DNA of 64,000 nt, taken from NCBI GenBank assembly GCA_001824255.1, contig MHWQ01000002.1, positions 205,446 to 269,445 of the forward strand, in the 5' to 3' direction. The position numbers and the translations under genes were made by a program. A model generated the notes under the pieces. That model had not been told where the DNA came from and made no database searches. It saw only the letters and a list, made by a program, of their open reading frames with translations. The DNA is from Candidatus Zambryskibacteria bacterium RIFCSPLOWO2_02_FULL_51_21. Lineage in GTDB: Bacteria; Patescibacteriota; Minisyncoccia; Phycocordibacterales; Zambryskibacteraceae. Position 1 is the first letter of the stretch. Each line of letters begins with the position of its first letter. Of the stretch, positions 6,243-51,972 are shown one piece after another.

Positions 6243-7299
6243 GGTAAAGTATTACGCCCGTTATGGCGCAGACAACCGAGACTATCCAGTAGCGCATGAC
6301 GACTTTCTCGCGCGGCCAGCCCTTCGCCTGGAAGTGGTGATGGAGTGGCGCCACGATAAATACTCTGCGCTTGTGGAAGAATTTGTAAACAAAAATTTGG
6401 ATGATGACAGAAGCGGTCGTCGCCACCAAAGGCAAGGCGATGATGGGCAAGAGCAGGACCGAATCGGTGAGAAAGGCAATAACCGCGAGCGTCACTGTAA
6501 GCGCGAGCATGCCGCTCTCCCCCATGTAGAAACGCGCCGGCGGCACGTTGAACCAGAGGAAGGCCAGTATGCCGCCGGCGATAGCTCCGGAAAGCGCCGA
6601 GATGTCGTATTGAGCGCCAAGGAAGGCAATGGCGGCAAAGGCGGAGAAGCACGAGGCGAGCACCCCGCCCGCCAGGCCGTCGAGCCCGTCTATGACTGAG
6701 GTTGAGAAAGTCCCGAGCACCACTAGGACAAAGAGCGGTATGAACCAGGCGCCAAGCATCCACGGGCCGTCAAAGGGTATATGGATAGAAACGAAATCAA
6801 GCTTGAAGTAGAACCACGAGGCAATGGCCAAGCCGATGAGAGTGACGAAAACGATTTTTACCTTGCGGTAGGCCAGAGCATCCTTGGCATAGCTACCCTG
6901 CCCGAAAATCTGCAGAAGGTCGTCGAAGAGCCCGATAATAGCGGTAAGGAAGAAGGCACCCAGGGGTACTACCGTCTGCGAGCGGCTGAAGAAGTTTACT
7001 TGGTCGAAGATGCTCCGCTCGCCGCCGAAGAGCCCTGCCGGGAAAAATTTCGAGAGTATGAAGATTAAGGCGACGGTAACAAAGACCGAGACCCAGATGA
7101 TGACGCCGCCGACACGCGGGGTCGAGAGTTCATGGTCGGTATTGTGAATCTCTTTGAAAGCGCCCGAGGTATCCGCTTCAGTCCGCGGACTCTTTTTCCA
7201 CATTTTATATTTGTAGAAGTAGCGGGTGAGAATCGGGGTGATGAAAATACCGGTGAAGAAAGTCAGAACTGTAGGAGCAATTATCTTTAAAATATCCAT
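6232..7299 (-). CDS. mraY: Phospho-N-acetylmuramoyl-pentapeptide transferase
   Basis: MraY-like 10-TM protein with conserved DDxxD/HHH regions, dcw context. Confidence 0.9.
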   Translation of the reverse strand: MDILKIIAPTVLTFFTGIFITPILTRYFYKYKMWKKSPRTEADTSGAFKEIHNTDHELSTPRVGGVIIWVSVFVTVALIFILSKFFPAGLFGGERSIFDQVNFFSRSQTVVPLGAFFLTAIIGLFDDLLQIFGQGSYAKDALAYRKVKIVFVTLIGLAIASWFYFKLDFVSIHIPFDGPWMLGAWFIPLFVLVVLGTFSTSVIDGLDGLAGGVLASCFSAFAAIAFLGAQYDISALSGAIAGGILAFLWFNVPPARFYMGESGMLALTVTLAVIAFLTDSVLLLPIIALPLVATTASVIIQIFVYKFFHKRRVFIVAPLHHHFQAKGWPREKVVMRYWIVSVVCAITGVILYLVS

Positions 7300-9086
7300 T
7301 ATTTTATATACACATTGTACCAGAGCGCGAGCATGAGCAGGAGATAAATTTTCCTGGCGTTCTTGCGCGTATTTTCGAAAAGTTTTTCTATCTCACTTTG
7401 GTCAAAATGAGTCTGGATATAACGGCAACTCAAAATTTCTTTGAGCTGTTCAACGCCCAACCATTCCGCAACCGGCACGGGGAATCCCAATTTCTTTCTC
7501 CTTCGCGTCGATTCCGGCAGAATATTCTTGAACGCTTCGCGCAGAATATATTTCGTCGCGCCATTACGCCACTTGAACTTATCTGGAAGCTTAGAAGCGA
7601 GTGTTGCTACGAAACTATCAAGGAACGGCACGCGCAGTTCAAGCGAGTGGGCCATAGTCATCTTGTCAGCCTTGGCCAGGATGTCGCCCACGAGCCAAGT
7701 ATTGATATCTATGTATTGCATCTTGGCCGAATCGCTCAAACTTTTTGCCTCTTCGTACAAATCGCTAAGCTGATATCTTGCCTCGGAGCCGCCCTTCCAT
7801 AATTTCGAAATTTCCGATTGCTTGAAAATTGATGCATTGCCGATATAAGTGTCCTCAATTTTCTGGAGCGCCCTCTCGGCGTAATTTCTCCCACGCAGAG
7901 GAAGCTTCGACAGGAACTTCAATACGCCTTTCGGCAGGAGTGCCAGACGCCGTCGGGCGAATGGCTCTAGGTAAATGTTGTAGCCGCCGAAGAGTTCGTC
8001 GGCGCCTTCGCCTGAGAGCACCACCGTCACGCTCTTCCTCGCTTCGCGCGCAAGGAAGTAGAGCCCTATAGCCGAAGGGTCGGCCACCGGCTCGTCGAAG
8101 TGCCAGACCGCCTTGGGTAAGGTTTCAAAGTACTCTTTCTCCCCCACCGAGATTTCCGTGTGGTCGGTACCTAAGGGTTCGGAAGTTTCTTTCGCTTCAG
8201 CGCCCTCGCTTATAGTTTTGAATCCTACCGTAAATGTTTTTATTTTCTTTTCACCGCGAATCTTTTGCATCAAAGTGGCAATGATGGACGAATCTATGCC
8301 GCCGGAGAGGAAGGAGCCGACCGGCACATCGGCAATCAAGTGGTGCGCTACGGAATCCTTCATGAATTCGAGAATCTCTTTCTTTGTCTCGAGCTCGTCG
8401 AGAGATTTGTCGGGGCTAAATTTGAACTGCCAATATCGCTTCTTCTGCCACTCCCCCGTCATGAGGTCAATAGTCAGATAGTGAGCCGGAGGTAATTTGA
8501 AAACATTTTTGAAAAAAGTTTCTTCGAGCGGATTGTACTGATATGAAAGATAATTATATACGGCTATGTCGTTCACTTCCGCTTTGAAGTCCGGCAATTC
8601 GAGGAAAGACTTGATTTCAGACGAATACGCAAGGATTCGTCCGTCCTGTTTCAAATAGTACAGCGGTTTGATGCCGAAGAAGTCTCGGGCGAGGAAAACT
8701 TTTTTCTCTATAGTATCGTAAACGCAAAAGGCAAACATACCGCGAAGCTTCTTCAAAACGTCCGGGCCCCATTTCACGAATCCAGCCAGAATTACTTCCG
8801 TATCACTGTCCGTTTTCCAAAGATAATCACTTAGCTCTTTCTTAATCTCCTTGTAGTTATAAATTTCGCCGTTGAAAAATATTAGATATCTTCCGTCATC
8901 CGATGATATCGGCTGGTCGCCCTTCACCAGGTCGATGATGGCAAGCCGACGCATGCCAAGCGCCACGTACTCATCGGTATAGAACCCGTCATCATCAGGG
9001 CCCCGGTGTGCGATAACAGCCGTCATCTTCCCTATGAGTTCCTGCTTCGCTAGCTTTTTATTTGTAATTCCTGCTATTCCGCACAT
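7299..9086 (-). CDS. asnB: Asparagine synthetase (glutamine-hydrolysing)
   Basis: N-terminal MCGIAG Ntn amidotransferase, SGGIDSS PP-loop. Confidence 0.9.
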   Translation of the reverse strand: MCGIAGITNKKLAKQELIGKMTAVIAHRGPDDDGFYTDEYVALGMRRLAIIDLVKGDQPISSDDGRYLIFFNGEIYNYKEIKKELSDYLWKTDSDTEVILAGFVKWGPDVLKKLRGMFAFCVYDTIEKKVFLARDFFGIKPLYYLKQDGRILAYSSEIKSFLELPDFKAEVNDIAVYNYLSYQYNPLEETFFKNVFKLPPAHYLTIDLMTGEWQKKRYWQFKFSPDKSLDELETKKEILEFMKDSVAHHLIADVPVGSFLSGGIDSSIIATLMQKIRGEKKIKTFTVGFKTISEGAEAKETSEPLGTDHTEISVGEKEYFETLPKAVWHFDEPVADPSAIGLYFLAREARKSVTVVLSGEGADELFGGYNIYLEPFARRRLALLPKGVLKFLSKLPLRGRNYAERALQKIEDTYIGNASIFKQSEISKLWKGGSEARYQLSDLYEEAKSLSDSAKMQYIDINTWLVGDILAKADKMTMAHSLELRVPFLDSFVATLASKLPDKFKWRNGATKYILREAFKNILPESTRRRKKLGFPVPVAEWLGVEQLKEILSCRYIQTHFDQSEIEKLFENTRKNARKIYLLLMLALWYNVYIK

Positions 9087-26914: not shown

Positions 26915-27157
26915 GGAAAGAATATACCATATTTATAAACGAAACGGCCCCTCACCATCGGGTGAAGGGCCAGGGAGCTATGCCAGGACGGAACGTGGCG
27001 AGCCGCGTGACGTAGCGGCCCCAGTCACCCCCGAGTTCCTGCAAGAACCGACGAAGACGATGCAGCCGATAACGAACGGGCGCGCGCCGGATCGTATAGT
27101 CCATGCGGTCTCCTTTGTAATCTTTCCCTATTATCCCACAACCCTACAAATTTGCAA
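26915..27157 (-). promoter_or_regulatory. alaS 5' leader: promoter (TTGCAA-N16-GATAAT) plus about 200 nt GC-rich structured region with alternative antiterminator pairing; candidate T-box-like or attenuator riboswitch
   Basis: -35 at 27152-27157, -10 at 27130-27135 on minus strand; upstream GGGUGA-CU-GGGGCC is complementary to the 5' arm of the terminator. Confidence 0.4.
26933..26971 (-). terminator. Intrinsic terminator/attenuator hairpin in alaS leader, about 20 nt before start codon
   Basis: 11 bp stem GGCCCUUCACC-CGAU-GGUGAGGGGCC followed by GUUUCGUUUAU on minus strand. Confidence 0.55.
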
Positions 27158-27725
27158 GCGCTTTGAAATCCTCCTTGAGAGTACTCATGAGATGCTGGTT
27201 ATAGATAGCCGCCGCGGGGTGGTAAAGAGGAATGAATTTAAATCCTTCCGCCTGGAAAACTTGGCCGTGAAGTTTTGAAATAGTGTCGAGTTCGAAGTCG
27301 AGACCGTAGTGGGTCATGACGTAAGCCATGGAAAATCGCCCGAGCGTGGCAATAATTTTCGGCTGAATTATTTTGATTTGCCTGTCGAGAAACGGCGCGT
27401 ACGCCGCGATTTCATCCGGCAAGGGGTCGCGGTTGCCCGGCGGGCGGTCTTTTACAATATTGGTGACATACACATCTTTCCTCTCGATGCCGACACTCTG
27501 TAGAAGGTCGTCCAGCACTTTTCCAGCCCTTCCGCAGAAGGGCCGGCCGGTCTTGGCCTCATTCTCTCCCGGCGCCTCGCCCACGAACATGATGTCCGCC
27601 CTATGATTCCCTTCGCCAATGACCGGAAAATATTTATTCTCCACCCTCTCGGCATAAAGCGGCGAGGAAACGAGATTCAAAATTTCGTTTTTTATTTTCT
27701 TAAGCTCCTCTTCCCTTTCATCCAT
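27144..27725 (-). CDS. Uracil-DNA glycosylase, family 4
   Basis: GEAPGENEAKTGRPFCGRAGKVLD motif. Confidence 0.85.
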   Translation of the reverse strand: MDEREEELKKIKNEILNLVSSPLYAERVENKYFPVIGEGNHRADIMFVGEAPGENEAKTGRPFCGRAGKVLDDLLQSVGIERKDVYVTNIVKDRPPGNRDPLPDEIAAYAPFLDRQIKIIQPKIIATLGRFSMAYVMTHYGLDFELDTISKLHGQVFQAEGFKFIPLYHPAAAIYNQHLMSTLKEDFKALANL

Positions 27726-28137
27726 CGCGCCTGTTTGGAATTAATTTGTGTTCTATGAACCAGAATAGCGTGAAGGCGATAAGTGTGGCGAGAGTGGCGA
27801 AAACCGCGAGCGAGATAAGTCCGTAGCCCGCCGCCATGCCGATGCCGGCCGCCACCCAGAGCCCGGCCGCCGTAGTGAGCCCCTGCAGAGTCGAGTCTTT
27901 GAAAACAATCACTCCGCCGCAGAGGAAGCCGATGCCCATGACAACGCCCGCCGCAATACGCATAGGGTCGTAGTTGAAAGTCTCAACGGTCGGGATGATG
28001 TATTTCGCAATAGTAATAAAGAGGGCCGAACCCATCGAGACGAGGCCAAAGGTTCTCACCCCCGCGCTCTTGTGGGCGATGGAGCGTTCGAGGCCGAGAA
28101 GCGAACCGAGCATGAGCGCCAGCAGAAGATTTATCAT
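27718..28137 (-). CDS. mgtC: MgtC/SapB family membrane protein
   Basis: MgtC N-terminal domain signature, 4 TM. Confidence 0.75.
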   Translation of the reverse strand: MINLLLALMLGSLLGLERSIAHKSAGVRTFGLVSMGSALFITIAKYIIPTVETFNYDPMRIAAGVVMGIGFLCGGVIVFKDSTLQGLTTAAGLWVAAGIGMAAGYGLISLAVFATLATLIAFTLFWFIEHKLIPNRRDG

Positions 28138-29009
28138 TTAAGTTCGTTTATTTCATTAATAACCTGTTCCGGCGCGAAGCCGGGACCTAAAATTTTGCCA
28201 AGCATTTCCGGATGCTCCTTAATCTTCGAGCAGAGCACTACTCCGCCGGCGAGTAATTGTGTCTTCTCGGTGTCGGAAAGAGTGGTAAGACAAGTCACGG
28301 GGTGGAGACCTTCTTCTTCTATCATATCCTGGAGATTGCCCTTCTCCGGATAATTCCAGCCGATAAGGGTCATCGAATTGCATTCCGCGTAGTGTATGGC
28401 GGTCGAGGAAAACTTGGTGTTGGTGACAAGCCAGCCGTCGCTTATTTTCCTGTTCCTGCCGCCGTAATCGTAGACATTGTCCTTGAGGTCGTCGAAGCGC
28501 GCCTTGACATAAAGCACCACCTTGAGGTCGGACTTGGTGCCGAGCTCGTTGTGGAACTTGGCTTCAATCATGATGAGCTTCTTCTCGTTCCAGGCCACCA
28601 CATCCACTTCGTGCGGCACACAGCCGCCGATAACCGTCTGGCGGGTGGCGCACTCATAGCCCTTGGCTCGGAGAACTTCCGCCACGAAATCTTCGAACGG
28701 AAAGCCGGAAGGCCCCAAGTCCATGACCGCGCGGCGGAGCGAATAGCTTCTCGCCGCGTGGCGGGAGAGACCGGCGAGAATCTTGAAGGCATGGCGATAG
28801 ATGTCGTGCGTCGACATGCCGCTTTTGAGTTCCGGCACAAGGTGAGTTAGAACCTTTTCGGCCTCTTCGACGGACGCGCCAGAATTAAGAAGCGAGAAAC
28901 GCAGTTTCTCGGGGTCGAAAGCTTCGTGCTTACCGCTCGCCTTAACGATGGTTATCGTATTGGCGCCGAGCACCTTCTCTTCTTTCTCCAATTCCGCCGT
29001 ATTTGGCAT
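28134..29009 (-). CDS. ATP-cone domain fused to Mrr-like PD-(D/E)xK nuclease domain protein
   Basis: ATP-cone consensus (ITIVKASGKHEAFDPEKL...), then nuclease core with D-x-D...E-A-K motif (EVDVVAW...IEAKF). Confidence 0.6.
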   Translation of the reverse strand: MPNTAELEKEEKVLGANTITIVKASGKHEAFDPEKLRFSLLNSGASVEEAEKVLTHLVPELKSGMSTHDIYRHAFKILAGLSRHAARSYSLRRAVMDLGPSGFPFEDFVAEVLRAKGYECATRQTVIGGCVPHEVDVVAWNEKKLIMIEAKFHNELGTKSDLKVVLYVKARFDDLKDNVYDYGGRNRKISDGWLVTNTKFSSTAIHYAECNSMTLIGWNYPEKGNLQDMIEEEGLHPVTCLTTLSDTEKTQLLAGGVVLCSKIKEHPEMLGKILGPGFAPEQVINEINELK

Positions 29010-29021
29010 GAAAATATTATA

Positions 29022-30101
29022 TCAGGAAATAATTTTATCCATTATTCCGCCGCCGAGGAGGTTGCCGTTCTCATAAAAGACCAGCGATTGGCCGAGGGAA
29101 AGACCCCGAACAGGGGTCTTGAATTCCACAGACAACCTGCGACCGACAACTGACAACCTTATCGGCAGTTTTTCGCCGCGATAACGGACTTGACCTGTGA
29201 GCTCGGGCGATTCGGGCTCCCTAATCCAGTTCACGTTTTTCAGAATAATTTTTCTCGGGGAGAATTCGAGAATCTCCGACTCTTCGTCCGAAACGACGAG
29301 AGTGTTCGTGTCCGCATCCTTCGCCACTATGTAGAACGGCCCGTTGTCGGCTCCTTTCTGTGTCACTTCGAATCCTTTGCGCTCGCCCACGGTGTAGTAA
29401 GGAAGCCCGTCGTGCCGGCCGATTACCGCTCCTTCCGTATTCATAACCTTGCCTCTCTTCGCTTTTACATAATGCGAGAGAAATTCTTCCATGGAAACAT
29501 TGCCCATGAAGCAGATGCCCTGGCTGTCCTTCTTCTCGGCGACCGGCAGGTTGTATTTCTTGGCTAATTTTCTCACTTCCGATTTTTCCATGTGGCCAAC
29601 CGGAAAAATAGTGTGGGAAAAATCGTCCGGAGTAAGCATCCAGAGGAAATACGATTGGTCTTTCTCGCCGGAGAGATAATGCCCAGTCGCGATGAAGTCC
29701 GCACCAAGCTCCTTCGCTTTATTCCAGAAGACGCCGAACTTAATCTCCTTGTTGCAAAGTACGTCCGGGTTGGGCGTACGGCCGGCTTTGTACTCGGCAA
29801 TCATCTTATCCACGACATCTTTCTTGTATTCCGCTTCCGCGTCGAGGAAAAGGAATGGTATACCGAGAGTGAGGCATATTTTCATCGCATCCCTTCTCTC
29901 CTCTCTCCAGGTGCAAGAAAGCCACTCCGGCTGCCAGGCGCGTATAAAGACTCCCGTCACGTCGTAACCCTGCTCCTTGAGCAGAGCCGCCGAAACGGCG
30001 GAATCCACGCCACCGGAAAGTCCGACGAAAACCCTCGGGCGTAGCCCTATGGGCAAGTCCTTAGTTCGAGAGATATTTCGCGATATTGGCTTTGTGTTCA
30101 T
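29022..30101 (-). CDS. mnmA: tRNA-specific 2-thiouridylase
   Basis: PP-loop SGGVDS, conserved Cys residues, full length. Confidence 0.9.
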   Translation of the reverse strand: MNTKPISRNISRTKDLPIGLRPRVFVGLSGGVDSAVSAALLKEQGYDVTGVFIRAWQPEWLSCTWREERRDAMKICLTLGIPFLFLDAEAEYKKDVVDKMIAEYKAGRTPNPDVLCNKEIKFGVFWNKAKELGADFIATGHYLSGEKDQSYFLWMLTPDDFSHTIFPVGHMEKSEVRKLAKKYNLPVAEKKDSQGICFMGNVSMEEFLSHYVKAKRGKVMNTEGAVIGRHDGLPYYTVGERKGFEVTQKGADNGPFYIVAKDADTNTLVVSDEESEILEFSPRKIILKNVNWIREPESPELTGQVRYRGEKLPIRLSVVGRRLSVEFKTPVRGLSLGQSLVFYENGNLLGGGIMDKIIS

Positions 30102-30942
30102 CGAAGGTCTTGGAATAATGCATCTTGCCGTCCTTGCCCGTCAAATAATAGAGATAGGGCGTCGAAGTCGGATGTATGGCGGCACGGATAGAGGCTAATC
30201 CTGGATTATTTATGGGCGCTTCGGGCAGGCCGGGGAATTCGTAAGTTTTCGCCTCCACATCGACCTGCAAGGCCATGCCGAGTTTGAGGCGCTTCCAGAG
30301 AATGCCGGAGACAATTTCGCGGTCTATCTGATTGTTCGTCTCCCCTTCTATGAGCGAGGCCATGGCGATGATGTCCTCAAGCTCTTTGCCGGAAGCTTCA
30401 ATCTCCGGCATAACCGGGAAAATTTTCCTGATGAAATTGTCACGCATAATCTTCATCGTCGAGGTGGCGGTAGATGTCACCGGCATGAAGTACGTGTCAG
30501 GGAATAGGTATCCCTCTGGCGCCGTTTTCTTGAACAATGAGTTGTCGAAGAACGGAAAGCGGTCATCGAAAAGGGCCGAAATTTTCTCCACCGTGAATCC
30601 TTCCGGCACGGTAATCTTCATCGATTCGATGCCGTAGCTGCCGCGCCTAATCCTCCAGGCAATAATGAAAGGGCTCTGCGGGCGTTCGAAATAATACTGG
30701 CCCGCCTTCATGTCCCGCTCGCCACCAAGAAATATGGCGGCTGTGCGGAACCAGAAGGGTGAGCGGATGACATTCTGCTTTTCTAAATCAAGAGAAAGAG
30801 TCTGGAGGCCTAAACCTTCAGCCACGTTAATGATCGAACCGGCAGGAAAATTGCCCGGCGGAGTTAGAAAACTGGCCGCGCCTATAACGACAGCAATCCC
30901 CAAGAAAAATAGAAGAATCTTTACGGTCTGTGATTCTTGCAT
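30061..30942 (-). CDS. mltG: Endolytic murein transglycosylase MltG (YceG-like)
   Basis: YceG motifs (EGYLFPDTY, GLP..PI..PG); ORF-track N-terminal extension rejected, start at internal ATG 30942 next to upstream stop. Confidence 0.75.
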   Translation of the reverse strand: MQESQTVKILLFFLGIAVVIGAASFLTPPGNFPAGSIINVAEGLGLQTLSLDLEKQNVIRSPFWFRTAAIFLGGERDMKAGQYYFERPQSPFIIAWRIRRGSYGIESMKITVPEGFTVEKISALFDDRFPFFDNSLFKKTAPEGYLFPDTYFMPVTSTATSTMKIMRDNFIRKIFPVMPEIEASGKELEDIIAMASLIEGETNNQIDREIVSGILWKRLKLGMALQVDVEAKTYEFPGLPEAPINNPGLASIRAAIHPTSTPYLYYLTGKDGKMHYSKTFDEHKANIAKYLSN

Positions 30943-30944
30943 CG

Positions 30945-32204
30945 CTAGACTGGAAGATTGGCCGGCGCTTCGGCCTTCTTGCTCGGTGCCCTCACAAGCG
31001 AAGGCGTGGTGGCGACTGAGCCGGGCAAATGGAAGAGGCTGGCCACTTCTTCGACGGTGAGTATGTAGGGTTCGGAAAAGAGATGGTAATGGAGCGGCCC
31101 GTGGTAGGCCCGGCGCTTGTAGGAGTCGATGAAACTTGTCAGCCGTTCGTTCTTCCTGATATCGTTCCAATCCTGCCATGAGTGCGTCAGGGCGAAGAAA
31201 ATTGGTTTGATGCCGTTTAGCATCGTGGCCGAACCGAACTGACGCATGGAACCGATGATGCCCATGCCGCGAGTCTTGTCGAACTCATCCTTGGGAGCGA
31301 TGTACATAAGGCGAATCATGGTGTCAAAGGCGAGCTTGCCGGCATTTCTCTGGATGGACGCGACAGTATCGGTCTGCGCCTTGGTCAAGTTAAGGAAACG
31401 GAAGGTCTGGGCTTCGCCTTCTTTCGGCTTGAGCAGAGATTCTTCCTCAACCATCTTTTCTATCTCCTTCTTGATACCGGCGCGCCAGTCCGGCTTGGCG
31501 ATGAGGCGGCCATAGAGATAACTCTCTTTGGCATGGGCGCGGATGAGAATCTGTATGCCGGCCACTTCGCCGGGCTTCAGCGTGCCCAGATATTCTATGA
31601 CCGGTGTTATGGGGTCGACAATCTTCGCTTGTTCTTCCTGGTCGCCGGCTTTTTTATCAAGTTCGAATTCAATGTAGGTCTTGATGGGATACGCGTCGGG
31701 TTTGACGAGACCGGTGTTGACGCCGAAGACTTTCACCTTCTCCGGGTCGTAACGCAGGTCTAGCGCGTAGTCCCTGACCTCGAAGACTTCCGCCTCCGGG
31801 TATTGGGCGTAAATTCTTGACTCGATGATTTTCTTCCACCTCGGGAAGGCCCAGATGAAGAATCTCACCTGCCCGCCGATGGAAACGATTTCGAGCGAGA
31901 ACCATTCGCGCATTTTGCCCTCCCAAAAAGCGTCGGCCGGAGTGGAAATGTTGGCGTTCTCCCAGATGCCCTGGAGCACGAGCTCCATGGCCGCCGGGGA
32001 CTTCGTCACCTCCTTCGGCAGTCTTATCTCGAGTAGAATCGAGCCCTGCTGGCTGACCCAGAGCCGGCGGATGTACCTGAGCCAGGTGGTCCAGGCGAGA
32101 CTTATGAGAATCAGCGGCACCCAGACCGGCCAAGCGGAGAAAAAGAAACCAATAGCCCGCGAGAGCACCTCCTGATTGAAAGGGTTGGCTAAGTCTTCGA
32201 ACAT
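30945..32204 (-). CDS. Conserved hypothetical membrane-associated protein (419 aa)
   Basis: ORF track; N-terminal TM pair then large soluble domain; tightly packed with mltG. Confidence 0.6.
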   Translation of the reverse strand: MFEDLANPFNQEVLSRAIGFFFSAWPVWVPLILISLAWTTWLRYIRRLWVSQQGSILLEIRLPKEVTKSPAAMELVLQGIWENANISTPADAFWEGKMREWFSLEIVSIGGQVRFFIWAFPRWKKIIESRIYAQYPEAEVFEVRDYALDLRYDPEKVKVFGVNTGLVKPDAYPIKTYIEFELDKKAGDQEEQAKIVDPITPVIEYLGTLKPGEVAGIQILIRAHAKESYLYGRLIAKPDWRAGIKKEIEKMVEEESLLKPKEGEAQTFRFLNLTKAQTDTVASIQRNAGKLAFDTMIRLMYIAPKDEFDKTRGMGIIGSMRQFGSATMLNGIKPIFFALTHSWQDWNDIRKNERLTSFIDSYKRRAYHGPLHYHLFSEPYILTVEEVASLFHLPGSVATTPSLVRAPSKKAEAPANLPV

Positions 32205-32225: not shown

Positions 32226-33260
32226 CTACACGTTTGAGTAGCGTCCGTCTTTGTCCTTCTTGAAATATTTGGAATTCTGGAGGTTGACGAGGATGGTGTT
32301 CTCTTTGACATAGCGCTCCTTCAAAACTTTTTTGACTATTTCCTCGCGGCTAAGCGGGCCCTCCTTGGCAAGAATACTCTTGATGACATCCTTGACGACG
32401 CCCGACATATAACCCCACTCGGCAAGCGCATAGAGTCCGCGTCCAACGAGAACGAAACGCTTGTCCTTGATAAGCTCGTTGTGCGTGGTGGCGACGTGAG
32501 CCTTCTTGTTGAAATACTGGGTGATGGCCTTAGCCACTTCCTTGAAATGGATGGGCGAACCATGCTTCCTGATAACGAGGAAGGCATAGTCGCGCATACC
32601 CTTGGCATTGACGTTGGGAGAAGAGGCCCGGCCCCATTCGCCGAGAGGATTCTTGCCTATCTTATGCGAAATGCCGAGCCAGCGCTTGATAATCTCATCG
32701 TCCTTATACTTCTCGTTGAGGTCCTTCACCTCCTCGAGGAAAGAGGAAATGAGGTCGCCTTCGACCACGAGCTCGTCATCGGAAAGCTTGGCATAGAGTT
32801 TCCTCAAAGTATTCTGAATCTTATCAGCCAGCTGTTGGTCGACGTGCCAGCGGTGGCGGAATTCTTCGTCCTCCTTATCGCGCTTGAACTCCTCGCCGAT
32901 GATGAGAAGAAAGTGGTAATGATTCTGGGTTGAAGGCTCTTTGGCCAGATGTTTCAAGAGGTCTTTCTCTGACACAATGCCTCCCAACGCCGTGACGATA
33001 TCCTTGAGTTCGGCAAAGACGGCCTCAGCTTCCTTGTAGGACTTCGACTTCCTGATGGCAGCGATGGAATGGTTCTCAATCTGGCGGACGCGCTCGCGGG
33101 TGATGCCGTACTTCTTGCCGATGGCATCGAGAGTGAGCTTCTGAGCCTTGGCGCCCAGGCCGTAGCGAGAAACGATTACGTCCTGGCCGCGCTTGGTGAG
33201 AACCGACAAAAGTTTCTTGGTGGCTTCCTTGGGCTTAAAGCTGGTTGCTATCTTTTCCAT
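32226..33260 (-). CDS. Protein with N-terminal sigma-70 region-4-like HTH followed by about 250 aa uncharacterised domain
   Basis: Region 4 signature (LTLDAIGKKYGITRERVRQIENHSIAAIRK) at N-terminus, not C-terminus. Confidence 0.6.
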   Translation of the reverse strand: MEKIATSFKPKEATKKLLSVLTKRGQDVIVSRYGLGAKAQKLTLDAIGKKYGITRERVRQIENHSIAAIRKSKSYKEAEAVFAELKDIVTALGGIVSEKDLLKHLAKEPSTQNHYHFLLIIGEEFKRDKEDEEFRHRWHVDQQLADKIQNTLRKLYAKLSDDELVVEGDLISSFLEEVKDLNEKYKDDEIIKRWLGISHKIGKNPLGEWGRASSPNVNAKGMRDYAFLVIRKHGSPIHFKEVAKAITQYFNKKAHVATTHNELIKDKRFVLVGRGLYALAEWGYMSGVVKDVIKSILAKEGPLSREEIVKKVLKERYVKENTILVNLQNSKYFKKDKDGRYSNV

Positions 33261-33307: not shown

Positions 33308-36067
33308 TCAAGAAGTCACGATATTTACCAGTTTTCTAGGGACATAAATCCTATTCTTGACTGCCTTATCCCCAACCCACTTTTGCGTTTCGGGGAGATT
33401 CTCTGCAAGCTCGAAAGCTTCCGCCTCATCGAGCGCTCTCAGCGCTTCGAATTTGCCGCGCACGCGGCCGTTGACCTGAACCACAATTGTAACAACTTCG
33501 CTCACAAGCTTCGTTTCATCGTACCCGGGCCAGCTCTGTGAATGAATTGAATCGCTGTGTCCGAGCGAGTGCCACAACTCTTCCGCCATATGCGGCGCGA
33601 ATGGTGCTAAGAGCTTTAGTAATGTTTCGTATTCTTCTTTGGAGATTTTCTCTTTCTTCTCCAAATCATTTACAAAAATCATCAGGGTTGAAATCGCAGT
33701 ATTGAAACGCATGTGCTCGATATCGCCGGTCACCTTTTTTATCGTTTGATGAGCGGAAGATGAAACTTCATCGAGCGAAGTCTGGCCATGCTTGCCGGAG
33801 GCAACATCCGAAGACTTTGTGAGAGGAAGTTTCGTCTGAAGTCTCCATATTTTCTCCAAAAATCTCCGCGGCCCGACCAGAGAACTCTCACTCCAGGCAA
33901 TTGCCTGTTCGAAGGGGCCCATGAACATCTCGTAGAGGCGCAGAGTGTCGGCGCCGAAACGTTCAACGATAGAATCGGGATTTATGACATTGCCTTTCGA
34001 CTTACTCATCTTCTCTCCCCCTTCGGCCAAGATAAGCCCGTGAGAAGTGCGCTTCTTGTAGGGTTCACTTACGGGCACAAGGCCTATGTCATATAGAAAC
34101 TTATTCCAGAAACGGGAATAGAGAAGATGAAGAACTGTGTGCTCCATACCGCCGTTGTACCAGTCCACGGGCATGAAATATTTGAAATTTTCAATTTGCA
34201 ATTTCCAATTTTCAGTAGAAACCGGATTCTCAAATCCTTTCTTATCGAATAGGTAGGCGAGAAAATACCAGGAGGAGCCGGCCCAATTGGGCATAGTATC
34301 TGTCTCGCGCTTGGCAGGACCGTCGCATTTCGGGCAAGTTATATTGACCCACTCATCTATCGCCGCGAGCGGCGACTCGCCGGTGTCGGTGGGCATATAA
34401 TTCTTTACCTCTGGGAGAAGGACCGGCAAATCTTTCTCCGGCACGGGCACTATGCCGCATTTATCGCAGTGCACAACCGGAATCGGTTCACCCCAGTATC
34501 TCTGCCTCGAGAAAACCCAATCACGAAGTTTGTATTTGACGACCTTCTTGCCGAATTTCTCCGTAATTTTCTCTCTGGCTTCTCCCGATTCAAGACCATC
34601 GAATTCATTGGAATTCGCAATGATTCCTTCTCCTGTATAGAAATCTTTGCCAGTCTCAATACGCTGTCTGATAATTTCTATTTCCGAGTGATTTATACGA
34701 ATAGTTTTGAATTCCTCTTTGGATATCCATTCGACTTCATGCTTTTCAAGCTCTTCTTCTGTTACGGTTTGACGGGCATTACTCTTTAATTCAAAAAACA
34801 GCAAGACATCATGAGCGATGCGATTAACTCCTTTATGAGCTGCATAAAATTCCGCTTGAGTATCCCCGCCAAGCCTTCTAATTAATTCGATATCTGTGTA
34901 TCCGGTTTCTTCCGTTATTTCTCTCTTGGCCGATTCTACGGCATTCTCTCCTTCTTCTATGCCTCCTGTTACAAAAGTTCTCCATGGAACTTTTTTCCAT
35001 TTCAGAGTGAGATACTTCTCCGTTTTTGGATCATAAACAATGCTTAAGGTGACTTTTCGCGCCACAATATCTTTGCCGTTTTGATGCGGATTGGTGGAAT
35101 CCGGCAGGCGCGGCGTTATCACGTGCTTAATCGGCAAATCGTGCTTCTTGGCGAACTCATAGTCGCGCTCGTCGTGCGCGGGCACCCCCATAATGGCTCC
35201 GGTGCCGTAGTCGAAGTAAACATATTCCGCTTCCCAGACGGGAATTTTTTCCCTGGTCGCGGGATTAATTGCGTAATCTCCAGTAAATTTGTCTTCTTTA
35301 CCCGCCTTGACCAAGAAAGTAGCACCGAAGATTGTGTCCGGCCGAGTCGTGAATACTTCTATATCATCAAATTTGATAAGCGCGCCTTCCGACTTCCCTA
35401 TCCAGTTCTTCTGCTGAACTTTGACCCGCTCCGGATAATCCACGGTGTCGAGGTCAGCCAGAAGTTTGTCGGCATACTTAGTGATGGCGAGCATCCATTG
35501 CTCTTTTTCCCGCTGTTCCACCGGCGTGCCACAGCGCTCGCACTTGCCGTCCACCACTTCTTCGTTGGCGAGGCCAATCTTATCCTTCGGACACCAGTTG
35601 ATGGGAATCTTCGCCTTGTACGCGAGTCCATGCTCAAGAAACTTCAAGAAGAGCCATTGAGTCCATTTGTAATACTTGGGGTCAGTCGTGTTAATCTCGC
35701 GCGACCAGTCGAAGGAGATGCCGAGCGACTGAATCTGCCTGCGAAAAGTGTCTGTGTTTTCCTTCGTAATTTCTGCGGGCGGACGGCCTGTTTTGATAGC
35801 GTAATTCTCCGTCGGCAAACCGAAAGCGTCCCAGCCGATGGGATAGAGTACATTCTTGCCTTCCATCCTTTTCTTCCTCGCAATGATATCCATGCCGATG
35901 TACGGGCGAGGATGTCCCACATGAAGACCGTCTCCGGATGGATACGGAAATTCTATAAGCGCGTAATATTTTTGCTTAGAAGAATTATCTTCTGCATTGT
36001 ATAGGCCATCTTTCTCCCATTCCTTCTGCCACTTAGACTCTATCTGTTTCGGGTCGTATTCTGTCAT
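33308..36067 (-). CDS. leuS: Leucine--tRNA ligase with reduced CP1/editing region and an inserted Nudix hydrolase domain
   Basis: HVGH and KMSKS motifs; TTRPDT...GTGA spacing only about 45 aa; canonical Nudix box GGIEEGENAVESAKREITEETGY at aa 368-390. Confidence 0.85.
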   Translation of the reverse strand: MTEYDPKQIESKWQKEWEKDGLYNAEDNSSKQKYYALIEFPYPSGDGLHVGHPRPYIGMDIIARKKRMEGKNVLYPIGWDAFGLPTENYAIKTGRPPAEITKENTDTFRRQIQSLGISFDWSREINTTDPKYYKWTQWLFLKFLEHGLAYKAKIPINWCPKDKIGLANEEVVDGKCERCGTPVEQREKEQWMLAITKYADKLLADLDTVDYPERVKVQQKNWIGKSEGALIKFDDIEVFTTRPDTIFGATFLVKAGKEDKFTGDYAINPATREKIPVWEAEYVYFDYGTGAIMGVPAHDERDYEFAKKHDLPIKHVITPRLPDSTNPHQNGKDIVARKVTLSIVYDPKTEKYLTLKWKKVPWRTFVTGGIEEGENAVESAKREITEETGYTDIELIRRLGGDTQAEFYAAHKGVNRIAHDVLLFFELKSNARQTVTEEELEKHEVEWISKEEFKTIRINHSEIEIIRQRIETGKDFYTGEGIIANSNEFDGLESGEAREKITEKFGKKVVKYKLRDWVFSRQRYWGEPIPVVHCDKCGIVPVPEKDLPVLLPEVKNYMPTDTGESPLAAIDEWVNITCPKCDGPAKRETDTMPNWAGSSWYFLAYLFDKKGFENPVSTENWKLQIENFKYFMPVDWYNGGMEHTVLHLLYSRFWNKFLYDIGLVPVSEPYKKRTSHGLILAEGGEKMSKSKGNVINPDSIVERFGADTLRLYEMFMGPFEQAIAWSESSLVGPRRFLEKIWRLQTKLPLTKSSDVASGKHGQTSLDEVSSSAHQTIKKVTGDIEHMRFNTAISTLMIFVNDLEKKEKISKEEYETLLKLLAPFAPHMAEELWHSLGHSDSIHSQSWPGYDETKLVSEVVTIVVQVNGRVRGKFEALRALDEAEAFELAENLPETQKWVGDKAVKNRIYVPRKLVNIVTS

Positions 36068-43195: not shown

Positions 43196-43252
43196 GCAAG
43201 GCGTGTCATGACTCTGCTTTCGCAGAAGCATGACACGCCTTGATTTATTTTG
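43196..43252 (+). terminator. Rho-independent terminator after sulfatase-like gene
   Basis: AAGGCGUGUCAUG...CAUGACACGCCUU stem with structured loop, then AUUUAUUUUGG. Confidence 0.7.
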
Positions 43253-43324
43253 GTGGACCTAGGCGGAATCGGACCGCCGTTTCGGCAATGCGAATGCCGT
43301 GTTCTGCCACTAAACTATAGGCCC
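43251..43324 (-). tRNA. tRNA-Ala (anticodon CGC), CCA encoded
   Basis: Manual cloverleaf: acceptor GGGCCUA/UAGGUCC with G3:U70, D-loop AGUGGCA, anticodon loop UUCGCAU, T-stem GGCGG/CCGCC; T-loop UCCGAUU has C at position 55; 5' end overlaps DedA stop codon. Confidence 0.6.
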
Positions 43325-43905
43325 TTTTTCCCCTTAAAATATTGGATAACCGGCGGAATCAAGGATACCACAACGATAAGCCCCACGATAGGCAAAACAT
43401 AGCGGTCCGCATCGGGAATCGACTGGCCGAAGAAATATCCCGCCGAGGTAAGGCCGACCGCCCAGATAAGAGCCCCGAAGAAGTTATAGAAAGTAAAAAT
43501 TTTGTACTTCATCTCCCCCACTCCGGCCATTACGGGGATAAAAGTGCGCACTATTGGAACGAAGCGTGCGAGCACTATCGCTTTCTTGCCATGCTGGTCG
43601 AAAAAGCTCCTGGTCTTCTCGATATTTTCCGGGCTGAACCAGAATGATTTGGGCCGAGAGAAAATTCTTGGGCCGATTTTCCTTCCAATCCAGTAACCGG
43701 TCGCGTCTCCGGCAAAAGCCGCGAGGAAAAACATGGGCAAGAGAAACTCTATGCGCAAGTACCCCTGCGACGCGAGAAATCCGGCGGTGAAAAGAAGCGA
43801 ATCCCCCGGCAGGAAAAAACCGACGAATATGCCCGATTCGGCATAAATGATGCCGAAAAGGCCGAGATATCCGGCTGTTTGAATCAAAGAGACGAGGTCG
43901 AACAT
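43315..43905 (-). CDS. DedA/SNARE-associated (TVP38/TMEM64) family membrane protein
   Basis: DedA signature region (GIFVGFFLPGDSLLFTAG...), multiple TM. Confidence 0.75.
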   Translation of the reverse strand: MFDLVSLIQTAGYLGLFGIIYAESGIFVGFFLPGDSLLFTAGFLASQGYLRIEFLLPMFFLAAFAGDATGYWIGRKIGPRIFSRPKSFWFSPENIEKTRSFFDQHGKKAIVLARFVPIVRTFIPVMAGVGEMKYKIFTFYNFFGALIWAVGLTSAGYFFGQSIPDADRYVLPIVGLIVVVSLIPPVIQYFKGKKGL

Positions 43906-43928
43906 TGACCCACTATATCATCGAAATA

Positions 43929-44189
43929 TTATTCGAGGAAAACCTGCGCGCCCTCCTTGGCTCTCTGCGAGAGCTTCACCGCCGCGTCGGCTCCTTTCTT
44001 CGCCTTATCCGCGTCGGCGTGGTCAATCTGGAGGGAGGAAACAGTCTCTTCGAACTCCTCATCCCCTTTCTTTATCTTTATCCTGTCGCCCTTCCCGAGC
44101 GGACCGGTGAGCTTTATCACGGCTACGCCGATCTTGTCGTACCAATGGGTAACGGTGCCTATCTGCTTGGCCATGCCTGTATTATACAC
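43929..44189 (-). CDS. Small hypothetical protein (about 81-86 aa), beta-rich N-terminal half and Lys/Ala-rich tail
   Basis: ORF track; likely start at internal MAKQIG (44174) with TATAAT 7 nt upstream (possibly leaderless). Confidence 0.5.
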   Translation of the reverse strand: MYNTGMAKQIGTVTHWYDKIGVAVIKLTGPLGKGDRIKIKKGDEEFEETVSSLQIDHADADKAKKGADAAVKLSQRAKEGAQVFLE

Positions 44190-44206
44190 CCGGGAGAATA
44201 TACCAG

Positions 44207-44280
44207 TGGACGATACAGGATTCGAACCTGTGACCTTACGAATGTGAATCGTACGCTCTAACCAGCTGAGCTAATCGTCC
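44207..44280 (-). tRNA. tRNA-Val (anticodon CAC)
   Basis: Canonical cloverleaf: GGACGAU/AUCGUCC acceptor, D-arm GCUC-AGCUGGUUA-GAGC, anticodon loop UUCACAU, T-arm ACAGG-UUCGAAU-CCUGU. Confidence 0.85.
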
Positions 44281-44284
44281 CTTG

Positions 44285-44355
44285 TGGACCCACGGGGAGT
44301 CGCACCCCGGACTCGTCCATGCCATGGACGCGTGTTACTGCTATACCATGGGCCC
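44285..44355 (-). tRNA. tRNA-Ala-like (anticodon GGC), degenerate D-arm and T-loop; possibly pseudo-tRNA
   Basis: Acceptor GGGCCCA/UGGGUCC with G3:U70, anticodon stem CGUCC/GGACG, loop AUGGCAU; T-loop UGCGACU (G55) and weak D-stem. Confidence 0.4.
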
Positions 44356-44410
44356 ATTTGCGGCTTTATTTTGCTTCATTTTTAAGATAGAATCAAGTTC
44401 GTTACTTTTC

Positions 44411-44435
44411 AAAAATGAGCCCCCGGCTCATTTTT
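44411..44435. terminator. Bidirectional terminator-like element AAAAA-UGAGCC-CCC-GGCUCA-UUUUU abutting tRNA-Ala(TGC) 5' end
   Basis: 6 bp stem, 3 nt loop, symmetric A and T runs. Confidence 0.5.
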
Positions 44436-44508
44436 GGGCCCTTAGCTTAGTTGGTAGAGCGCCTCATTTGCAATGAGGAGGTCAGCGGTTCGAATCCGCT
44501 AGGGTCCA
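44436..44508 (+). tRNA. tRNA-Ala (anticodon TGC)
   Basis: GGGCCCU/AGGGUCC acceptor with G3:U70, D-arm GCUU-AGUUGGUA-GAGC, anticodon loop UUUGCAA, T-arm AGCGG-UUCGAAU-CCGCU. Confidence 0.85.
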
Positions 44509-44512
44509 CAAA

Positions 44513-48750: not shown

Positions 48751-48789
48751 AAGGCCGCCCATGTTGGGCGGCCTTAATTTATTTCTTCC
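48751..48789. terminator. Terminator hairpin shared by small ORF (+) and uvrA (-)
   Basis: AAGGCCGCCC-AUGUU-GGGCGGCCUU followed by AAUUUAUUUCUUCC on + strand. Confidence 0.65.
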
Positions 48790-51331
48790 TCAGTGCCTTA
48801 CGCAGATACTTGCCCGTGTAAGTATCGGTATTGGCGACCTCTTCCGGCGTGCCTTCGGCCACCAGCTCGCCTCCGCCGTCACCCCCCTCCGGCCCGATGT
48901 CGAGGATGTAGTCGGCGGACTTGATGAAGTCGAGATTGTGCTCGATGACAATGACCGTATTGCCCTTATCCACAAGCTTCTGGAGAATCTCGATTAATTT
49001 CTTTACATCAGCATAGTGGAGACCGATTGTCGGCTCATCGAGAAGATAAATCGTTTTCTCGAGATGTGGGCGGTAAAGTTCCGAAGCAATCTTTACCCTC
49101 TGCGCTTCTCCGCCGGAAAGAGTCGTCGCCGATTGCCCCAGAGCAAGATAGCCGAGCCCCACGTCATTCATACTCTTCAATCTGTCATAAATGGCCGGAA
49201 TATCCTCGAAGAACTTGAGCGCCTCCTCGACCGTCATCTCAAGGACTTGGAAAATATTTTTGCCCTTATACTTCACTTCCAGAGTCTCTTTCATAAATCT
49301 CTTGCCGCCGCAGACATCGCAAGGCACATAGACGGTCGGTAGGAAATGCATCTCGACCTCTATCATGCCGTTCCCCTGGCAAGTCTCGCAGCGGCCGCCC
49401 TTCACGTTGAAGGAGAACCTGTTCGCCTTCCAGCCGCGGGCCCTGGCCTCGGCCGACTCGGCGAATAACTCGCGTATGAAAGTGAATGCACCTGTATAAG
49501 TGGCCGGGTTACTCCTCGGCGTGCGGCCTATGGGCGACTGGTCGATGAGAATGGAGCGGCCGAGATACTCCGACCCTTCAAATGATTGGCAGTTGTAAGT
49601 ATTGGCGTTCCTGTAACGGCGGTCGAGGCGGACCTCAAGATTCTTGTGCAAGATTTCATAGACGAAAGAGGATTTGCCCGAACCGGAGACTCCCGTGACC
49701 GCTATGAGCCGGTGGAGCGGGACATCAACGTTCAAATGTTTGATGTTGAAAATCTTGCCGCCGCGAATTCTTATAACTCCCCTCTCACTTTCTCTCCTCT
49801 TCTCGGGCTTCTCTATTTTCTCTTCGCCACGAAGATAAGAGAGGGTGAGAGAACCGGATTTATTCTTGGGGCTGGTGAGAAGTTCGTCGAGGTCTCCTGA
49901 CACAACCACTTCTCCGCCGTGCACTCCCGCGCCGGGACCGATATCCACTATGTAGTCGGATGAGTAAATAGTTTCTTCGTCATGCTCGACTATGAGAATG
50001 GTGTTGCCGAGGTCTCGCAAATTTATAAGCGTCTTGATAAGGCGCTCGTTGTCGCGGGCGTGAAGCCCGATAGTCGGCTCATCGAGCACATAGAGCGCGC
50101 CGACAAGGCCGGAGCCAAGCTGGGAGGCGAGGCGTATGCGCTGCGCCTCGCCGCCGGAGAGCGTGTGCGCCCGGCGGTCAAGCGAGAGATATTCGATACC
50201 GACGTTTAACATGAAGGAGAGACGTGCTTCAATCTCCTTGGTCACCACCTTTGAAATATTTTTCTCGCGGACCGTCAGCTTCAACTTCTTGAAGAATTCG
50301 TCACAATCTTTGATAGACATCTTCGTCAGTTCAAGAATATTCTTGCCGCCGATTAAAACATGGAGGGCTTCCTTCCTAAGCCTGGCTCCGCCGCAATCTT
50401 CACAGGGTTCAGAGCCAAATAAATATTTTGTCCCCAAACCATTACAAGTCGGGCAGGCGCCGTAAGGCGAGTTGAAGGAGAAAAGGCGCGGCTCGATTTC
50501 TGGGAAGGAGAAGCCGTCCTTTGGGCAAGCCCACTTGGCGGAGAGTAAATGTTCTTCGGAGCCGAGGCGGAGCACCAGAAGCCCGTCGGATTCGTGTATC
50601 GCCTTCTCTATCGCCTCGCTTAGCCTCTCGCCGGAGCTCTTCTCGTCGAATTTAAACTCTTTCGGATTGATGAAGTCGACCAGGACAGAAATTTCGTGCT
50701 TCTTGGTCTTGGTGAGCTCGATTCGCTCCCTTAGAGACTTCTTCTTGCCGTCCACCATGACGGTGGTATAGCCCTTACCGAGCAAATCATACAGCAGCTG
50801 GTAATATTCCCCCTTCCGCCCGCGGACGATGGGGCTCCATATCTCGACGTCTGCCGAGGATTTCGCTACTTTCTCCAGCACGAAGTTCTTTATCTCTTCA
50901 TTCGACAATTTTTTAATCTCGGTGCCACAAACCAGGCAGTGCGGGTGACCGACGCGCGCGTACAAAATTCTCAAATAATCATAAATCTCGGTAATGGTCG
51001 CTACCGTCGATCGCGGATTGTTGGAGCGACTTTTCTGGTCTATGGAAATGGCGGGTGAAAGGCCGATAATCTCGTCCACATCCGGCTTCTGCATCTGGCG
51101 CAGGAACTGTCGCGCGTAGGAAGAAAGCGATTCCACATAGCGCCTCTGCCCCTCTGCGAAAATGGTGTCGAAGGCAAGCGATGATTTGCCGGAACCAGAG
51201 AGGCCGGTGAAGACAATCATCTTGTTCCGCGGCATCTCAACCGTAATATTCTTAAGGTTATGGGTGCGGGCACCTTTTACAATGATTTTGTCGCCCGGAG
51301 CTACCGATGTTTTGGTCTTTTTCTCTGACAT
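48779..51331 (-). CDS. uvrA: Excinuclease ABC subunit A
   Basis: Two ABC ATPase modules with Walker [10 protein letters not shown] / GVSGSGKSS, zinc-finger Cys clusters; 850 aa. Confidence 0.9.
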
Positions 51332-51393: not shown

Positions 51394-51972
51394 TTACTTT
51401 TTCTCGCGCTCAAACCTGAGCACACTACCTGTAAAGTTCTTACCTGAGTCCTCAAAGCAGACTTCATAATCAACAGAATATTTTTCTGCTTCAGGAATAT
51501 GATTCTTTTTTATAAACCGGAATTCTCGAATCAGTCCCGTTGATTTCTTGAGAGGACAATCCTTAAGATGTTCCACGAGGTATTTTGCAAACATGAGCCA
51601 AGGAGGAATATTTGTTATATCGGAAGGAAGCCCAAACTGCTCAAGCATATTGTAGAGATTCCCCCTTAGATCTCCAAGAGAGAAGAACTGGTGATTGAAA
51701 TCTGAGTGATGAAATTTATCTTCAGGATGCTCAATGATAAATTTCTCCATTTCTTCCAGTGTTCCTCTGGCAAATTCCTTATTAGTGAGATTTGTGTGCA
51801 CAGCCCAATTGCACCAATGTTTAACTCTATCCCATTCAGGAAGACTGCTTCCATTTTCTTCTTCCATTTTATCTACCAGTCTTCTCAACTCGACCATTAT
51901 GTACACGACTCGCTCTTTTTCGATTGGTTTTTGTAAGGCTGACCTTAAGTTTTCTATTATTTCTTGTCTCAT
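51394..51972 (-). CDS. Hypothetical protein (192 aa), AT-rich (about 38% GC), start overlaps uvrB stop (TAATG)
   Basis: ORF track; strong compositional contrast with flanking uvrA/uvrB; His/Cys/Trp-containing, no recognisable domain. Confidence 0.6.
   Translation of the reverse strand: MRQEIIENLRSALQKPIEKERVVYIMVELRRLVDKMEEENGSSLPEWDRVKHWCNWAVHTNLTNKEFARGTLEEMEKFIIEHPEDKFHHSDFNHQFFSLGDLRGNLYNMLEQFGLPSDITNIPPWLMFAKYLVEHLKDCPLKKSTGLIREFRFIKKNHIPEAEKYSVDYEVCFEDSGKNFTGSVLRFEREKK

Follow-up and report, generated by a model that had tools for sequence, protein, structure and literature searches.

An ATP-cone fused to an AF1548-type nuclease in a conserved Patescibacteria gene block: a candidate nucleotide-gated enzyme of nucleic-acid turnover

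What might a bacterium do with a nuclease that carries the nucleotide-sensing domain of ribonucleotide reductase (RNR)? The question is raised by the stretch of DNA analysed here (the window), 64,000 nucleotides from Candidatus Zambryskibacteria bacterium RIFCSPLOWO2_02_FULL_51_21 (assembly GCA_001824255.1, contig MHWQ01000002.1, positions 205,446 to 269,445). The list of open reading frames places on its minus strand a gene of 291 amino acids (28134..29009, -) with an ATP-cone, a PD-(D/E)xK nuclease core and an AF1548-like_C domain, which is called the ATP-cone nuclease below. A first-pass annotation of the window had described the fusion, placed it in an operon with an MgtC-family protein and a family-4 uracil-DNA glycosylase (UDG4), and proposed genome defence, nucleotide-pool surveillance or repair as its role. 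Its coordinates, the motifs EVDVVAW and IEAKF and the gene overlaps were all confirmed by direct reading. Neither of the two outcomes that it named as refuting the claim was obtained, namely a lack of the catalytic residues on alignment and a failure of the N-terminal region to match ATP-cone profiles. The fusion is real, as judged from an Mrr_cat match above cutoff and, for the cone, from family-level matches and the fold. Our preferred reading, tentative and somewhat short of an even chance, is that of an ATP/dATP-gated housekeeping nuclease acting in nucleic-acid turnover and in nucleotide salvage and energy metabolism.

Three modules are firmly supported in the protein: the ATP-cone (residues 20-96; 28722..28952, -), the PD-(D/E)xK (Mrr_cat) core (residues 106-217; 28359..28694, -) and an HhH-like helical domain (residues 226-290; 28140..28334, -), which is the counterpart of Pfam AF1548-like_C and resembles HhH-type DNA-binding domains. 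The linker DLGPSGFPF (residues 97-105; 28695..28721, -) bridges the final helix of the cone and the opening helix of the nuclease, on which E106 lies. The C-terminal domain had been put at 130 amino acids; this figure is too large, as the nuclease core runs to about residue 217 and only about 65 residues form the separate helical domain. In the Pfam profile search, Mrr_cat (PF04471) scored 33.4 bits at residues 102-216, above its curated cutoff of 21 (E = 5e-8), and was also recognized in 20 of 20 close homologues. The ATP-cone (PF03477) match of the window protein (residues 20-93, spanning profile positions 2-83 of 88, E = 8e-4) reaches 20.3 bits and thus falls below the Pfam cutoff of 25.8. 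We retain it because 19 of the 20 close homologues match the same profile (best E = 7e-9) and distant family members exceed the cutoff (27-36 bits; for example, P0289 with 36.3 bits). No Mrr_N or other modification-reading domain was found in the Pfam search of the window protein. The protein has no Zn-ribbon, and NCBIfam gave neither an NrdR family match nor a family-level model for the ATP-cone nuclease, the only match being a weak one to YraN (E = 0.013).

The fold agrees with this division. When the family profile was compared with the PDB, NrdR cones were found at the matching place (E = 0.06-0.1). The sole significant solved relative by sequence is AF1548 of Archaeoglobus fulgidus (1Y88), which the window protein itself matches at residues 108-267 (E = 2e-25); with the family profile the alignment takes in residues 107-286 and so extends over the nuclease core as well as the helical domain at the C-terminus. 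An AlphaFold model built from 36 diverse homologues (pLDDT 92, pTM 0.84) shows a disordered tail, behind which the cone starts at about residue 20. Both the beta-hairpin lid and the four-helix fold of a cone are present, and Foldseek superposed NrdR cones on the predicted cone at 1.6-2.0 Å. The catalytic residues are placed on helix 104-115 and on strands 132-140 and 145-151. By structure comparison, the nuclease fold resembles those of MspJI, AspBHI, Can2, Card1, Cap4 and NucC.

The conservation of functional residues was examined in 387 members, down to 35% identity, drawn from three branches of the family, namely the close Patescibacteria, representatives at 50% identity and the Bacteroidota/Balneolota. 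The catalytic residues are present on alignment, and E106 (28692-28694), D136 (28602-28604), E149 (28563-28565) and K151 (28557-28559; all on the minus strand) are conserved at 99-100%, with D136 in the motif HEVDVVAW and both E149 and K151 in IEAKF. R171, D174 and N197 are conserved at 100%, and so is F105, the last residue of the linker. The spacing of D136, E149 and K151 is identical to that of D38, E51 and K53, the catalytic residues that Yooseph et al. predicted for AF1548 (PMC1821046); the 13-residue offset between the AF1548 numbering and that of the PDB chain is presumably due to a tag or a different start. These patterns argue firmly for an intact nuclease active site.

In the cone, K23 (98-100%), G26 (97-100%), K35 (94-100%) and Y89 (95-100%) are nearly invariant. 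The nucleotide contacts reported for E. coli NrdR are K53, E59, K65, V51, F61, L66 and I108, and those for S. coelicolor NrdR are V48, K50, E56 and K62 (PMC9110341). The former align with K23, E29, K35, I21, F31, L36 and I70 of the window protein, and the latter with I21, K23, E29 and K35, so the alignment firmly supports a cone that keeps most of the residues contacting nucleotides in NrdR, among them the Lys of the lid, the Glu, the Lys of helix 1 and the hydrophobic pocket. In the linker, G99, G102 and F105 (98-100%), P100 (96-100%) and P104 (83-100%) are conserved in all three branches, which suggests that the near-invariant GPSGFPF segment is the element coupling cone to nuclease. Since the catalytic residues are intact and the nucleotide-contact residues of the cone are mostly conserved, it is natural to infer that adenine nucleotides gate the nuclease.

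How does this protein compare with known systems? AF1548 likewise joins Mrr_cat to AF1548-like_C, in 199 amino acids and without an ATP-cone. It is a structural-genomics 'protein of unknown function' and, as no function has been assigned to it, the match supplies a fold and an active site and no role. The cone is held in common with NrdR and with RNR (NrdA/NrdB/NrdD), whereas the output domain here is a nuclease instead of a Zn-ribbon or the RNR barrel. Among sensor-gated PD-(D/E)xK nucleases, those of CRISPR and CBASS (Can2, Card1/VC1899, Cdn1, Cap4 and NucC) are built on the principle that is proposed here. Their sensors, however, are CARF or SAVED domains and their ligands second messengers, whereas a housekeeping nucleotide is predicted for the ATP-cone nuclease, which is found without CRISPR or CBASS context and belongs to a chromosomal, syntenic and highly conserved family. 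Mrr and the type IV restriction endonucleases share with it the Pfam catalytic family and the D...ExK motif, but it lacks Mrr_N and any defence-island or mobile context, and its N-terminal module is different.

The family is large. At 90% identity, 5,648 homologous clusters were found (E<=1e-3), the top 120 of them at least 68% identical; the 50%-identity library gave 1,134 clusters at E<=1e-3 and 425 at E<=1e-30, and nearly all of its best 150 are about 280 amino acids long and align end to end. In GTDB species representatives, close relatives exist in 224 genomes (best match, 82% identical), and the best 80 of these genomes are all Patescibacteria (Zambryski-, Taylor-, Paceibacteria and similar). 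The identical architecture is recognized in cultured Bacteroidota (Roseivirga, Algoriphagus, Marivirga, Marinoscillum and Pontibacter), in Balneolota (Fodinibius and Halalkalibaculum) and in Criblamydia (Chlamydiota). Members carry such names as 'ATPase', 'ATP cone domain-containing protein', 'restriction endonuclease' and 'Holliday junction resolvase-like endonuclease'. The architecture is thus already catalogued, in RefSeq product names and in Pfam (Mrr_cat, ATP-cone and AF1548-like_C), and the window protein is an ordinary member. In a literature search, which did not reach the original ATP-cone definition paper, we could not find any study of this family, and the ATP-cone papers found there dealt only with RNR and NrdR. 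Nor did that search bring up an earlier description of the two features set out next, the unusually high conservation in Patescibacteria and a conserved gene cassette in other phyla.

Eighty Patescibacteria loci, all of them at least 51% identical to the window protein and forming one clade, were compared. A co-directional block is conserved over these loci: LeuRS, a Sigma70_r4/HARE-HTH protein, a DUF8128-like protein, YceG, MnmA, the ATP-cone nuclease, a variable slot, UDG4, AlaRS, a GlxA-like protein and IF1, followed by S13 and S11. MnmA lies upstream of the nuclease in 75 of the 80, UDG4 downstream in 64, AlaRS in 69 and MgtC downstream in only 27. The alternatives to MgtC in the slot are a Cas4-like four-Cys PD-(D/E)xK nuclease (16-21 loci), an HD_3/YfbR-like 5'-deoxynucleotidase (5-6), an RNase_T-type DEDD exonuclease (3) and peptidases. 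One Cas4-like nuclease with CxxC...CxxC, in the slot before UDG4 of locus L037 (6829-7659), matches PDDEXK_1 with E = 2e-12. Set against the proteins of the window, the ATP-cone nucleases of these loci have a median identity of 62%, compared with 52% for MnmA, 48% for AlaRS and 41% for YceG; the value of the nuclease is comparable to those of UDG4 (67%) and IF1 (70%). Conservation within the block is highest for the 344-amino-acid Sigma70_r4 plus HARE-HTH protein (32226-33260, - in the window), whose median of 74% over 58 loci is above that of IF1.

In the window, MnmA (tRNA 2-thiouridylase; 29022..30101, -; Pfam tRNA_Me_trans, 226 bits) lies directly upstream, its stop codon 12 nt before the start of the nuclease gene. 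The two downstream neighbours named in the first-pass annotation are confirmed as an MgtC-family membrane protein (27718..28137, -; Pfam MgtC, 116 bits) and UDG4 (27144..27725, -; TIGR00758, 188 bits where the cutoff is 125). As read from the sequence, the nuclease stop and the MgtC start share 4 nt (ATGA, 28134-28137), and the MgtC stop and the UDG4 start share 8 nt (ATGGATGA, 27718-27725). A pattern scan gave a strong terminator-like hairpin in the gap between UDG4 and AlaRS (26945..26972, -; 12-bp stem with eight G-C pairs and a T-rich tail), which by its consensus match to the terminator pattern is likely the end of the transcription unit. Because the start and stop codons overlap and this hairpin follows UDG4, co-transcription of the three genes in the window is plausible. 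The operon is not, however, a conserved functional unit, and the idea that MgtC and UDG4 define the function of the nuclease was rejected: their linkage is synteny specific to the lineage, in a core part of the chromosome, and the three genes do not make up a system of their own.

Mobility was examined with three collections. By tblastn, none of 50,697 phage records and only two of 72,556 plasmids (from Pontibacter and Criblamydia) contained a match, and in two scans of the 2.9 million viral contigs of IMG/VR no relative was found. The 80 Patescibacteria loci have no defence or methyltransferase neighbours. It is firmly supported that the gene is chromosomal, widespread and under strong purifying selection. 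Because of the absence from phage and viral sequences, the mere two plasmids, the synteny of the block in 80 genomes and the conservation of the nuclease above that of MnmA, AlaRS and YceG, it is best read as a housekeeping enzyme of the chromosome and not as a mobile defence gene.

Outside the close Patescibacteria set, 88 loci were compared; L088, a divergent Patescibacteria locus that retains the gene order of that group including MgtC, was excluded from them. MnmA, MgtC and UDG4 were near the nuclease in none of the 88. Here, in Bacteroidota, Balneolota and Chlamydiota, it stands at the head of a cassette of four genes, followed by a beta-CASP/RMMBL metallo-hydrolase, a thymidine-phosphorylase (TP)-family protein and ribose-phosphate diphosphokinase (PRPP synthetase). 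The whole cassette was seen in Roseivirga, on one Pontibacter plasmid and on one Criblamydia plasmid; its presence on the two plasmids hints that it has spread horizontally as an entire unit. On the Criblamydia plasmid the cassette genes overlap, and they are surrounded by phosphoketolase, glycogen phosphorylase, acetate kinase and glucoamylase. The best full-length named relative of the beta-CASP protein is the archaeal aCPSF1. The TP-family protein (about 505 amino acids) matches TIGR02645 'ARCH_P_rylase' with 579 bits and the AMP phosphorylase model with 486 bits, below its cutoff of 535. Behind the cassette there are often a 229-amino-acid unknown protein, PPK2 and a P-type ATPase, and ahead of it often type II (archaeal) GAPDH, PFK, DeoC and a 2-hydroxyacid dehydrogenase. 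After removal of metagenome loci whose nuclease was at least 85% identical to another, beta-CASP was directly downstream in 29/51, the TP-family protein was present in 15/37, PRPP synthetase in 14/37, the P-type ATPase in 21/37 and type II GAPDH in 13/36. In Bradyrhizobium diazoefficiens, the trio of partners (MBL, PRPP synthetase and TP-family; bll3115-3117) is induced by microoxia at the protein and RNA levels (PMC6515984).

Two further observations were made in this set. The non-Patescibacteria island (L083/L084, L090, L091 and many of L092-L171) consists largely of archaeal-type enzymes, namely type II GAPDH, the TIGR02645 phosphorylase, the aCPSF1-like beta-CASP protein and the AF1548-like nuclease. 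In two Balneolota-like loci (L085, at 7200-8729, and L125), a glucoamylase-family enzyme encoded two genes downstream of the nuclease bears an ATP-cone of its own; this cone is about 50% identical to that of the nuclease, which suggests that one cone subtype has been shuffled among hydrolases of the same island.

From these features a mechanism can be proposed. The protein would be a PD-(D/E)xK endonuclease of the AF1548 type, with its catalytic core followed by an HhH-like domain that binds nucleic acid. By analogy with RNR and NrdR, the fused cone may bind ATP or dATP, and possibly also ADP, and would probably switch the enzyme between active and inactive states, either oligomeric or conformational; the signal would pass through the invariant GPSGFPF linker to the helix with the catalytic E106. 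In RNR, ATP is the activator and dATP the inhibitor, and the cone acts there, as in NrdR, by altering the oligomeric state (PMC5794259, PMC9110341). Given this precedent, nucleotide-dependent switching of the nuclease is the most economical mechanism. The job of the enzyme would most likely be to start a controlled breakdown of nucleic acid, whether DNA or RNA, when the adenine-nucleotide pool signals need, with products that would supply energy metabolism and the salvage of nucleotides. Enzymes that would carry this breakdown further are encoded alongside it outside Patescibacteria, namely a beta-CASP nuclease, an archaeal-type nucleoside monophosphate/nucleoside phosphorylase, PRPP synthetase and PPK2. 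The path from polymer to nucleotides and energy would then consist of degradation by beta-CASP, phosphorolysis, PRPP formation, polyphosphate-driven nucleotide phosphorylation by PPK2 and lower glycolysis.

A role in salvage and energy metabolism is proposed because this cross-phylum cassette of beta-CASP, TP-family, PRPP synthetase and PPK2 genes adjoins the nuclease. Further support comes from the YfbR-like 5'-deoxynucleotidase that adjoins it in a few of the Patescibacteria loci, from type II GAPDH, PFK and DeoC, which recur elsewhere, from the microoxic induction of the partner trio in B. diazoefficiens and from the related cone on a glucoamylase of the same island. In bacteria that belong to the CPR (Candidate Phyla Radiation), nucleotide biosynthesis is mostly missing and the archaeal AMP-phosphorylase route is in use (PMC5113843), so a regulated nuclease would be an attractive core function there. 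Of the roles first suggested, nucleotide-pool surveillance, in the form of salvage, has thus gained support, and repair remains a live rival.

Several observations weigh against the salvage reading. Partners of the salvage cassette are absent from the 80 Patescibacteria loci and from the 64-kb window, and the function for the window organism is therefore transferred from relatives in other phyla that are 40-50% identical. The recurrent Patescibacteria neighbours (UDG4, the Cas4-like nuclease and the DEDD exonuclease) suit salvage no better than they suit DNA repair. Even outside Patescibacteria the cassette is found in just about 40-57% of the loci, the other contexts being variable, and its beta-CASP partner has an 'RNA specificity' domain, whereas the C-terminus of the nuclease resembles a double-stranded-DNA binder. 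With regard to the cone, besides the sub-cutoff score of the window protein, the conservation of E29 is just 58-97%, Val taking its place in about one-third of the Bacteroidota/Balneolota branch. The Arg that stands behind the first cone Lys in many cones (R51 in S. coelicolor NrdR) is Ala in the window protein; E. coli NrdR has Ser at this position. Finally, the literature search turned up no assayed member of the subfamily, AF1548 included.

The repair neighbours raise the rival that we take most seriously, namely that the protein cleaves DNA in repair or recombination, as an endonuclease like NucS, Hjc or the AP/flap enzymes, with UDG4 as its partner; the cone would then permit cleavage only when deoxynucleoside triphosphates or ATP suffice for resynthesis. 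We regard it as possible and rather unlikely. It would account for UDG4 in 64 of the 80 loci, with another nuclease or an exonuclease in the slot between in some of them, for the translational coupling of the window nuclease to UDG4 via MgtC, and for the JGI label 'Holliday junction resolvase-like' on some members, and strong conservation suits a core repair enzyme. The adjacency to UDG4, however, is limited to one syntenic clade in which all genes of the block are equally linked, and outside Patescibacteria, where UDG4 is missing from the neighbourhood, the neighbours are metabolic. We could not find a precedent for an ATP-cone on a repair nuclease, and the structural matches to NucS and Hjc reflect the common PD-(D/E)xK core, restriction enzymes and Can2 being found at similar Z. 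If the catalytic fold instead only binds DNA, the protein could be an NrdR-like nucleotide-sensing regulator whose nuclease fold and HhH-like domain repress, for example, genes of nucleotide metabolism. An ATP-cone joined to a DNA-binding module is indeed the logic of NrdR, whose cones are the closest cone structures; PD-(D/E)xK folds are sometimes inactive DNA binders (as in Pfam NA-iREase1, to which weak matches were seen here), and nrdD lies near one distant locus. We nevertheless hold this to be improbable, since the four catalytic residues, kept over roughly 390 sequences, are the signature of an active enzyme, with R171, D174 and N197 conserved just as well. A Zn-ribbon is lacking, and no consistent linkage to RNR or nrd genes was found across the Patescibacteria or the other loci analysed.

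Defence, finally, would make the protein a type IV (Mrr-like) restriction or abortive-infection nuclease, with the cone triggered by a dATP/ATP pool perturbed by phage. Its Pfam family is Mrr_cat, its fold is like those of MspJI and AspBHI and of the ligand-gated Can2, Card1, Cap4 and NucC, and the sensing of nucleotide pools would be plausible as a logic of defence. In PADLOC, weak matches were found on the nuclease domain only, to the candidate system PDC-S02 (E = 3e-4) and to Csx1 (E = 0.026); we do not take them as evidence of defence. The genome-defence role offered by the first-pass annotation is disfavoured by the near absence from mobile elements, by the fixed place in a housekeeping block over 80 species, and by a conservation above that of the tRNA synthetases at the same loci, the opposite of what is seen in fast-evolving defence genes. 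The lack of a modification-reading domain and the metabolic cassettes outside Patescibacteria point the same way, and we consider this the least probable of the readings named, very improbable in itself. The probability left over by salvage, repair, regulation and defence belongs to something else that was not considered.

A wider form of the salvage reading, which we regard as doubtful, is that the nuclease constitutes a third functional context for the ATP-cone besides RNR and NrdR, opening a route from nucleic acid to nucleotides and energy under ATP/dATP feedback and serving Patescibacteria, which mostly lack de novo synthesis of nucleotides, as a regulated supply valve for (deoxy)nucleotides. 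The Patescibacteria enzyme would then correspond in function to the allosteric control of RNR, and this would account for a conservation above that of tRNA synthetases. In the other three phyla, Bacteroidota, Balneolota and Chlamydiota, it would stand first in a cassette for energy limitation made up largely of archaeal-type enzymes. The allostery of the ATP-cone is a textbook case. In the papers found, its study was confined to RNR and the repressor NrdR, and here the same sensor is found on a nuclease. If the cone gates the nuclease, it would tie the breakdown of nucleic acids directly, at the molecular level, to the adenine-nucleotide pool, which would bear on the nucleotide economy of ultra-small symbionts without nucleotide biosynthesis and would give a function to the structural-genomics orphan AF1548 and to the conserved beta-CASP/phosphorylase/PRPP synthetase cassette. 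Culturable hosts (Algoriphagus, Roseivirga, Pontibacter and Fodinibius) make the question directly testable.

Some minor features of the window were also noted. A promoter scan gave nine sites against 5.5 expected and was judged uninformative. In LeuRS (33308-36067, -) a NUDIX hydrolase domain (residues 341-463, 46 bits) is inserted in the editing (CP1) region, and the syntenic gene of L088 has the same architecture. The YceG open reading frame (30061-31179, -) overlaps the upstream gene (30945-32204, -) by about 235 nt; the Pfam YceG match begins only at residue 117, and the real start is probably further downstream. A compact tRNA cluster on both strands (43251-44509) contains tRNA-Ala with the anticodons CGC, GGC and UGC as well as tRNA-Val(CAC). 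An open reading frame of 617 amino acids (56769-58622, +) had no Pfam match at E<=1e-5. Genes for a UvrA-like protein (850 amino acids; 48779-51331, -) and for UvrB (51972-53996, -) are also present, which gives the organism nucleotide-excision repair at least in part.

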